A DNA stretch of 64,000 nucleotides from Octopus sinensis (taxonomy: Eukaryota): the NCBI RefSeq assembly GCF_006345805.1, contig NC_043022.1, forward strand, positions 21,142,001-21,206,000, read 5' to 3'. The notes beneath the pieces were generated by a model that saw only the letters and a program-made list of their open reading frames with translations, was not told the DNA's origin and did not search any database. Positions 34,168 through 59,151 of this stretch are shown piece by piece (positions within the stretch are counted from its first letter, which is position 1; each line of letters begins with the position of its first letter). Made by a program: the position numbers and the translations under genes.

Positions 34168-34268
34168 TTATGCCACTTGCCATTTCTGGAAGAAGTCATT
34201 CCCTTTGTTGTCAACGACGATGAAAGCGGGAAAATTTTCTACTTCAACTTTCCAGATAGCTTCCATGC
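34168..34268 (-). CDS. Class I FH exon 12, terminal ([33 protein letters not shown])
   Basis: atcag acceptor; TAA at 34168-34170. Confidence 0.95.
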
Positions 34269-34629
34269 CTGATAGGAGTAGATGTGGTGAGGAAGAGAGA
34301 AATACAGATAGTTTTAGAGTCGCAAAAACAGATATTTAAAGGTGAGTGAGTGAGTGAGTGAGTGAGTGAGGAGTGAGGGAGGAGTGAGTGAATGAGGAGT
34401 GAGGGAGGAGTGAGTGAATGAGGAGTGAGTGAGGAGTGAGTGAGTGAGTGAGTGAGTGAGTGAGTGGGGAGTGAGTGAGTGAGTGAGTGAGTGAGTGAGG
34501 AGTGAGGGAGGAGTGAGGCAGGAGTGAGTGAGTGAGGAGTGAGTGAGTGAGGAGTGAGTGAGTGAGTGAGTGAGGAGTGAGGGAGGAGTGAGTGAGTGTG
34601 AGTGAGAGTGAGAGAGTGAGAGAGAGAGA

Positions 34630-34719
<90 letters not shown>

Positions 34720-34729
34720 GAGAGAGAGA

Positions 34730-57200: not shown

Positions 57201-57701
57201 ATTTGGTAGTTTCTGATGAGCCCTACATGAAAAAGAAAGTATAGTTTGTCTGACTAACAATTATGGTGTGGCTGTGTGGTAGGAAGTTTGCTTCTTAACC
57301 ATTCTTCCTCACAACAGTCAACATGAAATGGACACACACATATGCGTGCGTGCACGCATACATTCATGCATGCATCCATACATACGTGCACATATACATA
57401 CTTCGTACATACATATATACATGCATGCATACATACACACATACATACACGCATGTATGCATACATGCACATATACATACTTCGTACATACATATACATA
57501 CATACACACATACATACATGCATGCATACATGCACATATACATACTTCGTACATATATATACATACATACATATATACATGCATGCATGCATACATACAG
57601 ACACACATACATACTCACACACACATACATACACACACACACACACATACATACATACATACACACATACATACACACATACATATATACATGCATGCAT
57701 G

Positions 57702-57732
<31 letters not shown>

Positions 57733-59151
57733 ATATGAGGACGTGCTGAAAAGTTTCTGAAAGACCTGATTGGAGGCCCAAGCTTCCAAATTGTTTTACA
57801 GGGTTTAGAAAATCTGAAGGGCCACTGCAATAAATGTGAGAATCTGAGAGGGGAATATGTTGAATAAAATCCTAATTAGCTGATCCTCCTGTATTCTTTT
57901 TACCCAAAGCCAGGAACTTTGCAATATACCCTCGTATGTGTACATACCTATTTCTTTACTACCCACAAGGGCTAAATACAGAGGGGACAAACAAGGACAG
58001 ACATAGGTATTAAGTCGATTATATCGACCCCAGTGCGTAACTGGTTCTTAATTTATCGACCCCGAAAGGATGAAAGGCAAAGTCGACCTTGGCGGAATTT
58101 GAACTCGGAACGTAACGGCAGACGAAATACCGCTAAGCATTTCGCCCCGCGTGCTAACGTTTCTGCCAGCTTGCCGCCTTCAAAATACCCTCGTATGTGT
58201 ACATACCATCATCATCATCATCATTGTTTAATATCTGCTTTCCATGCTGGCATGGGCTGGACGGTTTCACTGAGGACTGGCAAGCCAGTAGGCTGTGCTA
58301 GGCTCCAATCTGATCTGGCAAGGTTTCTACAGCTGGATATCCTTCCTAATGCCAACCACTCCGAGAGTGTAGCAAGTGCTTTTTACGTGCCACCCGTATG
58401 AGGGCCATGCTTGAATGGTGCTTTTTACATTCCACCGGCACAGGAGCCAGTGAGGCAGCACTGGCAACGACCACACTTGAATGGTGTTTTTTATGTGCCA
58501 CCAGCACAGGAGCCAGTGAGGTGGGGCTTGCATCAACCATGCTCGAATGGTACTCTTTACGTGCCACTGGCATGGGTGCCAGTAAGGCAGTACTGGCATT
58601 GGCCACGACATTGATTTCATTTGACTCAACAGGTCTTCTCAAGCAGTTTATTGCCCAATGATTGAAGGGTACTCTTAAATGGGCCGGTTATGCTACACTA
58701 GCATAGGCCATGGTTACGGTCTCACTTGGCTTGCTTGGTCTTCTCATATCTCCAAAGGTCTTGTTTGCTTATCATCGCCTCCATGAGGCCCAACGTTCAA
58801 AGTTCGTGCTTCACCACCTCATACCAGGTCTGACCTAATGAGTTGGATAAAATAAACACTAGGGAAAGTACAGAGGTCAATAGAATAACTAAACCCCTCC
58901 TCGAAGACAGTGCTCCAGCATGGTTGCAGCCCAAGGAATGAAATTGGTAAAAGAAATACAAGAATAAAATGATACAAACCTGAAATTTTCTTCCATGGAA
59001 CCTCTGGTTTTGCTTCGAAGTCCATTATGTCTTGGAAGATGAAGGGTTTTGTAGTGGCTGCTTTTGCCAATGTCCGTTCTAAGTGTAGGAAGTGGCGGGC
59101 GGCAACGCATCTCCGGCCAAAGTGTGATAGCCATCGGGAACAGCACAACAT
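34168..59151 (-). CDS. fumA: Class I (Fe-S, FumA/FumB-like) fumarate hydratase, 12 coding exons, 574 aa, probably mitochondrial
   Basis: Spliced by hand: join(complement 58980-59151, 56898-57025, 56153-56291, 52875-52978, 52106-52312, 49776-49902, 44841-45031, 43546-43656, 42265-42471, 39168-39287, 36916-37033, 34168-34268) = 1725 nt, open, ending in TAA. All introns are GT-AG and phases match. Class I FH motifs: [131 protein letters not shown]. The symbol denotes homology to bacterial fumA/fumB. Confidence 0.96.
34343..34850. repeat. (GAGT)n/(GA)n microsatellite, FH intron 11
   Basis: Seen directly. Confidence 0.95.
36916..37033 (-). CDS. Class I FH exon 11 ([21 protein letters not shown]...YPEL)
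   Basis: gtcag acceptor, G|gtaagt donor. Confidence 0.95.
37233..38915. repeat. Minisatellite, ~88-bp unit x ~19, FH intron 10
   Basis: Unit atcattacatatgaagagagggaagttaatgtgggtggagcagtgacatggtcatctgacaggaggaggagagagagatagagagagt. Confidence 0.95.
39168..39287 (-). CDS. Class I FH exon 10 ([16 protein letters not shown]...AKGNRSRQ)
   Basis: catcag acceptor, CAG|gtcagt donor; GPTTAGRM motif. Confidence 0.95.
41460..42037. repeat. (TA)n/TATGCA degenerate microsatellite
   Basis: Seen directly. Confidence 0.95.
42265..42471 (-). CDS. Class I FH exon 9 (IDMNQPM...VARDIAHAK...[10 protein letters not shown])
   Basis: attag acceptor, GAG|gtaaaa donor; 69 codons. Confidence 0.95.
43301..43596. repeat. 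148-bp tandem duplication including the 3' half of FH exon 8 and its donor
   Basis: 43301-43448 vs 43449-43596; the copy encodes [17 protein letters not shown]|gtgtgt. Confidence 0.9.
43546..43656 (-). CDS. Class I FH exon 8 ([24 protein letters not shown]...VVQ)
   Basis: ccaag acceptor, CAG|gtgagt donor; 37 codons. Confidence 0.92.
44841..45031 (-). CDS. Class I FH exon 7 ([10 protein letters not shown]...[19 protein letters not shown]), third Fe-S Cys
   Basis: ctgcag acceptor, CAA|gtaaga donor. Confidence 0.95.
45052..45345. repeat. (TAA/TGA)n microsatellite
   Basis: Seen directly; abuts the exon 7 acceptor region and the LINE 5' end. Confidence 0.95.
45346..49123 (+). mobile_element. 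Near full-length, frameshifted R4/Dong-like non-LTR retrotransposon (RT + CCHC + restriction-like endonuclease) in FH intron 6
   Basis: 411-aa N-terminal ORF; RT motifs [29 protein letters not shown] and [25 protein letters not shown] knuckle; RDDRVG..LHW and a degenerate PD..D..K RLE; A-rich tail; (TAA)n on both sides. Confidence 0.88.
49776..49902 (-). CDS. Class I FH exon 6 ([22 protein letters not shown]...), second Fe-S Cys
   Basis: caaag acceptor, G|gttagt donor; not in the ORF track. Confidence 0.94.
50211..50344. mobile_element. Tc1/mariner-type MITE
   Basis: TIRs aggttgtcccaaaagtttg / cgaacttttgggacaacct in TA-rich flanks. Confidence 0.65.
50479..50870 (+). mobile_element. Short RTE-derived non-autonomous retroelement between 71-bp direct repeats
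   Basis: ctatgccg...gtagggccacccaag resembles RTE/BovB 5' regions; caagtacaagtaagtac tail; flanks 50408-50478 and 50871-50941. Confidence 0.6.
52106..52312 (-). CDS. Class I FH exon 5 ([20 protein letters not shown]...AKGGGSANK...EKIK)
   Basis: ttccag acceptor, AAG|gtaaaa donor; 69 codons. Confidence 0.95.
52875..52978 (-). CDS. Class I FH exon 4 (GKKGQYVWT...NLRYSQ)
   Basis: tttag acceptor, CAG|gtaagc donor; NLRYSQ motif. Confidence 0.95.
53708..53990 (+). mobile_element. tRNA-derived SINE family E (related copies ~2836-3003, 4848-5133, 11940-12137, all minus)
   Basis: ggaggcacatggcctagtggttagagc...ggttcgaatctc head. Confidence 0.75.
55359..56057. repeat. Minisatellite, 79-bp unit x ~9, FH intron 3, derived from family D
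   Basis: Unit ggaagggcatccagccatagaaaccatgccacaacaaactgatggagtctggacaggtccctgctagtggttggcatta. Confidence 0.95.
56153..56291 (-). CDS. Class I FH exon 3 ([12 protein letters not shown]...[13 protein letters not shown]), first Fe-S Cys
   Basis: tttcag acceptor, G|gtaagt donor; CQDTG motif. Confidence 0.95.
56327..56600. mobile_element. Truncated GGATC-MITE running into (GAA)n
   Basis: Matches 16839-17115, then turns into a GAA repeat. Confidence 0.8.
56600..56800. repeat. (GAA)n microsatellite
   Basis: About 200 bp of nearly pure GAA. Confidence 0.97.
56898..57025 (-). CDS. Class I FH exon 2 ([18 protein letters not shown]...LLRPGHLQ)
   Basis: tacag acceptor, CAG|gtaact donor; resembles the FumA N-terminal region. 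Confidence 0.92.
57733..57936. mobile_element. Degenerate mariner-like MITE (related remnant at ~31405-31590)
   Basis: Ends tatgaggacgtgctgaaaagttt / ggaactttgcaatataccctcgta form imperfect TIRs with TA termini. Confidence 0.5.
57949..58180 (-). mobile_element. SINE family B copy with 23-bp TSD
   Basis: ggcaagctggcagaaacgttagc...gagttcaaattccgcc...gcctttcatcctttcggggtcgat; TSD ataccctcgtatgtgtacatacc at 57926-57948 and 58185-58207. Other copies ~22910-23322, 39428-40260, 42738-43020. Confidence 0.85.
58980..59151 (-). CDS. Class I FH coding exon 1 ([15 protein letters not shown]...VPWKKIS), putative mitochondrial presequence
   Basis: ATG at 59151 directly after a ...ctctttag acceptor; donor G|gtttgt; Arg-rich, acid-poor N-terminus; phase 1 joins exon 2. 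Confidence 0.85.

Follow-up and report, generated by a model that had tools for sequence, protein, structure and literature searches.

Why does an octopus carry a gene for a class I fumarate hydratase (FH) in addition to one for the unrelated class II enzyme? The class I gene lies in a stretch of 64,000 nucleotides of Octopus sinensis DNA (NC_043022.1, positions 21,142,001 to 21,206,000), hereafter the window, whose own numbering is used for the coordinates of this gene. Together, our results suggest that it encodes a [4Fe-4S] class I fumarase of the mitochondrial matrix, which was inherited from early animals and acts as a second tricarboxylic acid (TCA) cycle fumarase beside class II. We consider this the probable explanation, with clear room for doubt. 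It rests on the gene structure, the splice junctions tested, identity to an annotated protein, 13 active-site residues, a separate class II gene and introns shared with other lineages.

Gene structure and splicing

The gene is on the minus strand, with its coding sequence running from 59151 to 34168. Twelve coding exons splice to 1725 nt, corresponding to 574 amino acids and a stop codon, and all 11 coding introns have GT..AG ends. The product shows no difference over 574 residues from RefSeq XP_029651698.1 (P0168), named "fumarate hydratase class I, aerobic" of O. sinensis, so that the 12-exon reading frame proposed in an earlier note on this DNA was borne out.

Splicing was assessed by comparing four run contigs with positions 49750-53100 and 58900-59178. 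The joint between exons 5 and 6 (49902-52106) is present in all four and that between exons 4 and 5 (52310-52873) in three, both with CT..AC ends, and at least two of the four have a loose end of exon 6 that matches exon 7. All four contigs break at both ends of exon 1. On one side, a loose end at 58978 continues into exon 2 in each of them; on the other, loose ends at 59153 match 63687-63774 in each, the longest match being 88 letters. This extra exon upstream of the ATG brings the gene to 13 exons in all. The first intron (63684-59152, 4533 bp) is of the GC-AG kind with the donor GCAAGT, the start codon abuts its acceptor, and an in-frame stop is present upstream of the ATG. The exons are as follows (residue correspondences are derived in the next section).

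63685..63774, minus strand: first exon, non-coding; a minimum length, as its 5' end is not fixed; placed from run-contig ends; GC donor at 63684
58980..59151, minus strand: coding exon 1; ATG abuts the acceptor; 35-residue basic, presequence-like leader
56898..57025, minus strand: coding exon 2; splice model, with the exon 1-2 join in run contigs
56153..56291, minus strand: coding exon 3; C137 (predicted ligand 1), Q138 and D139, equivalent to Leishmania Cys133, Gln134 and Asp135
52875..52978, minus strand: coding exon 4; R178, equivalent to Leishmania Arg173; join to exon 5 in three of four runs
52106..52312, minus strand: coding exon 5; KGGGS motif with G221; join to exon 6 in four of four runs
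49776..49902, minus strand: coding exon 6; C257 (predicted ligand 2); loose end matching exon 7
44841..45031, minus strand: coding exon 7; H339, C343 (no ligand when numbered as in Leishmania) and C351 (predicted ligand 3)
43546..43656, minus strand: coding exon 8; linker joining the two domains
42265..42471, minus strand: coding exon 9; R426
39168..39287, minus strand: coding exon 10; T472, T473, R476 and K496
36916..37033, minus strand: coding exon 11; splice model
34168..34268, minus strand: coding exon 12; TAA stop, followed by possible poly(A) signals at 33902 and 33834

The window sits on a 25.5-Mb contig, and in Pfam searches of the genome this locus was the sole class I FH match among the best candidates scored. 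With the introns and the spliced contigs, these results confirm that the gene belongs to the host and is not bacterial contamination.

Cluster ligands and active site

The profile search suggested in the earlier note found both expected domains far above their cut-offs and fused in one chain: Fumerase (PF05681, E = 4.6e-79, 282.6 bits against a cut-off of 22.2) and Fumerase_C (PF05683, E = 1.8e-84, 266 bits against 25). The structure PDB 5l2r aligns to residues 53-570 of the product (E = 6.4e-230), and a search of the ESM Atlas returned fumarate hydratase clusters only.

Residues were mapped by alignment to PDB 5l2r with a chain offset of 36. For the Leishmania enzyme, the available text of 10.1101/2022.09.03.506457 names the cluster ligands Cys133, Cys252 and Cys346 together with ten more residues of the active site. 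The three ligands map to octopus C137, C257 and C351 (in the motif VSCSA), each of which is kept in 64 of 64 named animal proteins. The catalytic residues Asp135/His334 and Thr467/Arg421/Arg471 correspond to D139/H339 and T472/R426/R476, and the binding residues Gln134, Arg173, Gly216, Thr468 and Lys491 to Q138, R178, G221, T473 and K496. All 13 residues are thus identical in octopus, and they are kept in 63-64 of the 64 animal proteins. The motifs CQDTG (C137), AACPP (C257) and GASCP (C343), which the earlier note had taken to carry the ligands, are at the places it gave, but C343 was rejected as the third ligand in favour of C351: it corresponds to Leishmania Cys338, outside the three named ligands, and is a cysteine in 54 of 80 bacterial homologues as against 78 of 80 for C351. 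The predicted product is therefore an intact single-chain class I fumarate hydratase.

A close relative of the product (P0002, 94% identical) was also compared with the models of the Escherichia coli enzymes PRK15390, PRK15391 and PRK15392, with E values from 1e-229 to 2e-265. Its score against PRK15390, the FumA equivalog model, is 875 bits, below the curated cut-off of 1105, and PRK15392 (FumD) is the lowest-scoring of the three. The octopus enzyme is thus predicted to work like FumA without being a FumA equivalog.

Distribution, phylogeny and shared introns

Named orthologues come from at least ten animal phyla among the matches listed (two lists of the top 120): Mollusca, Annelida, Nemertea, Rotifera, Platyhelminthes, Priapulida, Hemichordata, Echinodermata, Chordata (amphioxus) and Placozoa. 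The snails Biomphalaria, Bulinus and Lymnaea carry the orthologue, and a fragment from the ichthyosporean Sphaeroforma is among the matches listed. Vertebrates, arthropods, nematodes, cnidarians and sponges are missing by name from the two lists, which does not prove that they lack the gene.

Trees were built from 75 and 49 rows, chosen by hand among the named proteins and a set of 80 bacterial loci. In the 75-row tree (LG+G4), one branch separates 36 named animals from 28 bacteria with a Shimodaira-Hasegawa-like approximate likelihood ratio test (SH-aLRT) support of 99, and the branch between animals and bacteria has a support of 85 in the 49-row tree (LG+C20), with thin protist sampling. The octopus protein pairs with that of cuttlefish (99) inside a mollusc-rich clade (95-96), and the deeper branching order among the animal proteins is poorly resolved.

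Intron positions were compared with metagenome contigs that had been picked by a GT donor at the end of exon 9. There were 43 of these, often closely related and mostly from leech-like annelids, which therefore do not stand for 43 independent lineages; intron 9, having served to pick them, was excluded from the count. A test on single GT or AG sites was dropped as unspecific, since 385 of 792 donor sites and 292 of 866 acceptor sites were positive in the bacterial control. Once donor and acceptor were both demanded, along with a gap of 40 nt or more, 114 of 115 testable positions were common to octopus and the contigs, compared with 0 of 711 in the bacterial control. In the tree, the leech Helobdella is joined by three contigs (99) and the clam Mactra by one; two (L123 and L143) fall beside annelids (93), and two further intron-bearing contigs are unplaced among animals. 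L123 has all 11 octopus intron positions.

Since intron positions are shared with annelid-like and other animal contigs, the exon structure is older than the split of molluscs and annelids, and the shared introns show retention since early animals. The trees and the introns both bear out the view of the earlier note that an ancient origin fits better than a recent transfer. Most simply, the gene is ancestral to animals and was inherited vertically, not transferred, while its deeper source may be either the first eukaryotes or an old transfer.

A class I FH of the vent tubeworm Ridgeia, whose branch is long, clusters with full-length proteins called on long metagenome contigs (P0155 and P0174-P0178 taken together); an intronless copy may lie behind this.

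Leaders of the two fumarases

The 35-residue leader of the octopus class I protein has a net charge of +6 (R5 K2 D0 E1) and a hydrophobic moment of 0.76, measures of N-terminal shape only. A basic leader of at least 19 residues is present in 61 of 64 named animal class I orthologues, the three exceptions looking truncated, and is absent from the single named bacterial class I protein compared. There is no methionine between M1 and M43 in the octopus protein. Many gastropod class I leaders (P0028, P0030, P0040, P0041, P0055, P0067) have a second methionine directly before the mature start, unlike the octopus leader; this residue could yield a cytosolic form.

A separate class II fumarase gene, for which the earlier note had recommended a search, was found with intact motifs on contig C14 of the octopus genome (G000). 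The class II proteins of Octopus bimaculoides and cuttlefish (P0184, P0187) have basic leaders of 35-40 residues that end in a methionine at the mature start, which is the layout of the dual-targeted vertebrate FH. Since both the class I protein and the cephalopod class II relatives bear basic leaders, both fumarases are likely to reach mitochondria. The idea of a second, mitochondrial fumarase, already raised in the earlier note, agrees with the coexisting class II gene and the presequence-like class I leader.

A second class II fumarase gene (L017) was observed at about 93,700-95,290 of contig C8460 of the same assembly, which is 670 kb long. It has about 8 introns of about 25-30 nt, a GC content of 34% and, per segment, 59-80% identity to its best class II matches. 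For a dicyemid, PMC6736024 gives a mean intron of 38 bp and a GC content of 36.7%. These values fit, without proving, contamination of the assembly by a dicyemid kidney parasite.

Proposed role and alternatives

We propose the following model for the class I enzyme as a second TCA-cycle fumarase. To judge from the shape of its N-terminus alone, it would enter the mitochondrial matrix, where C137, C257 and C351 would hold a [4Fe-4S] cluster. By analogy with the work on the Leishmania and Methanocaldococcus enzymes, the free fourth iron would bind malate, T472 with R426 and R476 would serve as the base and D139 with H339 as the acid, and the enzyme would be labile to O2. The two fumarases might divide the labour: class I would be confined to the matrix because no methionine lies between M1 and M43, whereas class II would be both mitochondrial and cytosolic because of the methionine at the end of its leader. 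Since its cluster would be exposed, the class I share of the flux would drop under iron shortage or reactive oxygen species (ROS).

Several points weigh against this model. Localization, activity, cluster binding and physiology are all read from sequence. The run contigs cover 4 of the 11 coding junctions; that they represent RNA is a guess, and they attest the existence of the joined form but cannot rank expression or tissue. The first exon and leader of the class II gene were not found within 14.6 kb upstream in the octopus genome, and the class II presequence was taken from the O. bimaculoides and cuttlefish proteins. The animal branch is less well supported under the mixture model, and the protists in the trees come down to one named ichthyosporean fragment. 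In addition, that the gene was kept so long alongside class II hints at a role of its own, for which simple redundancy does not account.

A bolder proposal, which we find possible though on balance unlikely, is that early animals had two unrelated mitochondrial fumarases, of which the iron-sulfur one, its 11 introns frozen in place, persisted in lineages from placozoans to amphioxus and octopus for a job beyond class II, and was lost in vertebrates. This job would be mesaconate hydration in itaconate turnover or that of an iron- and ROS-sensitive valve of the TCA cycle. If true, this would be an overlooked difference in core metabolism between most invertebrates and vertebrates.

The alternative that survives best, still an improbable one, is that the kept function is to turn mesaconate into (S)-citramalate, for instance during the turnover of itaconate, or to dehydrate D-tartrate, reactions that class II performs poorly, with the fumarase activity as a by-product. 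According to the available text of 10.1101/158956, class I enzymes including that of Plasmodium accept mesaconate and D-tartrate, less well than fumarate, and the Plasmodium enzyme favours fumarate and malate 3.5- to 10-fold. The agreement of all 13 active-site residues with the Leishmania fumarase gives no sign of re-tuning for mesaconate or tartrate. To our knowledge, there is no sequence marker for the mesaconate preference of the FumD type. The octopus genome contains an intron-bearing gene of the MmgE/PrpD family, the family of the itaconate-forming enzyme IRG1, on contig C23 (14086698-14087837; L147, L148). This gene, a match at the family level, is possibly IRG1-like.

It is less credible that class I is the main TCA-cycle fumarase and that class II has turned mainly cytosolic. 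According to the available part of 10.1101/158956, class I alone is predicted to be mitochondrial in many of the organisms that have both, and some tapeworms have no other class; some mollusc class II models (P0186, P0274) begin at the mature methionine. However, the basic 35-40-residue leaders of the O. bimaculoides and cuttlefish proteins argue that class II is probably also mitochondrial in cephalopods.

The role in hypoxic malate dismutation, one possibility raised in the earlier note, is quite unlikely for octopus. In this scheme the enzyme would be a hypoxia specialist that converts malate to fumarate for rhodoquinone-dependent fumarate reduction, as proposed for flukes. The trematode class I FH might serve malate dismutation (PMC5257007, in the part available), molluscs, annelids and flatworms, which make rhodoquinone (PMC7434440, likewise), carry the class I gene, and class I enzymes are described as O2-sensitive in the same portion of 10.1101/158956. 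PMC7434440 ties rhodoquinone synthesis to a second coq-2 exon that is mutually exclusive with the first and bears L204 and S243. In the octopus coq-2 gene (contig C3), the diagnostic sites of a single 134-nt exon are occupied by F and A, 39 residues apart as expected, and the exon is thus of the a-type; no second copy of the exon was found in the flanking introns (1946 and 1139 bp, free of N). The best scores in these introns were 33 and 30, compared with 249 for the exon against itself, and 41 and 49 of 200 shuffled sequences did as well; a stretch at C3:128713913 was rejected as a decayed coq-2 exon, scoring no better than shuffles. Rhodoquinone has since reportedly been found in some mammalian tissues, which makes the coq-2 exon a less than absolute criterion. 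Placozoans, echinoderms, hemichordates, amphioxus and a priapulid have retained the class I gene as well, and these lie beyond the four phyla for which rhodoquinone is described in the available text of PMC7434440. The single a-type coq-2 exon, without the rhodoquinone-type e-exon, and the retention in these other phyla together make malate dismutation unlikely in octopus; it may be the role in flukes or bivalves.

Recent horizontal transfer from bacteria into cephalopods, or contamination of the assembly, to which the 63-73% identity of bacterial homologues to the octopus protein might point, has next to no probability and is refuted by the introns, the splicing in reads, the chromosome-scale contig, the occurrence in 10 phyla, the nesting among molluscs and the shared introns.

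Repeats and mobile elements in the introns

The first intron contains a 624-bp inverted repeat (60626-61247 and 61933-62551, 98% identical) with internal 158-bp tandem units, which looks like a foldback element or a relic of a DNA transposon. Intron 6 harbours a broken non-long-terminal-repeat retrotransposon (45308-48657, plus strand), antisense to the gene, with an open reading frame of 429 residues and a reverse-transcriptase piece containing YMDD at 47388-47927 (PF00078, E = 1.9e-7). Intron 8 holds a copy of the 3' half of exon 8 and its donor, which arose from a 148-bp tandem duplication (43301-43597). Two intronic minisatellites were also found, at 37214-38927 (88 bp x 19.4, 96% matches) and at 55359-56057 (79 bp x 8.8, 99% matches).

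Comparison with known systems

The gene and the phenomenon are already known, and this is not a new find. The earlier note could not tell whether the gene had been annotated in this lineage; it has been, as XP_029651698.1 in O. sinensis and as CAI9741182.1 in O. vulgaris (7 differences over 574 residues), both automatic annotations with no difference of note. Class I FHs of multicellular eukaryotes were catalogued in a 2017 preprint as sparse and mostly alongside class II (10.1101/158956, available text), and its animal list may already include molluscs. The novelty thus falls away; orthologues are widespread in invertebrates, although biochemically characterized ones were not found. Literature searches, with most subscription journals outside their scope, found no paper on the function or an animal-wide survey of class I FH in free-living animals.

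The flatworm enzyme is called "Platyhelminthes-specific" in the part of PMC5257007 at hand, a label that is too narrow because snails and many free-living animals carry the orthologue. This wide presence in snails and other invertebrates bears on the selectivity of class I FH inhibitors. Mercaptosuccinate is described as such a class I-specific inhibitor (10.1101/158956, same portion), and for this reason the function in free-living animals would be cheap to test.

Among characterized enzymes, fumarate hydratase 2 of Leishmania major (PDB 5L2R family) is likewise a single-subunit class I enzyme with the same 13 active-site residues as octopus. Kinetoplastids possess class I alone, encoded by a mitochondrial and a cytosolic gene (10.1101/158956, as far as available), whereas octopus combines a single class I gene, whose product has a basic leader, with a class II gene. 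The flatworm class I FHs (Fasciola, Hymenolepis, Echinococcus; KEGG K01676) are orthologous, with 69-72% identity to P0002, and lie on the same animal branch, but flukes use malate dismutation, and the coq-2 e-exon is missing in octopus. E. coli FumA, FumB and FumD have the same two fused domains as the octopus-like P0002, which scores 763-881 bits against their cut-offs of 1060-1105, and the octopus gene differs from theirs by its added leader and introns. Class II FumC and vertebrate FH catalyse the same reaction with an unrelated sequence and fold and without iron, and a gene of this class, too, is part of the octopus genome.

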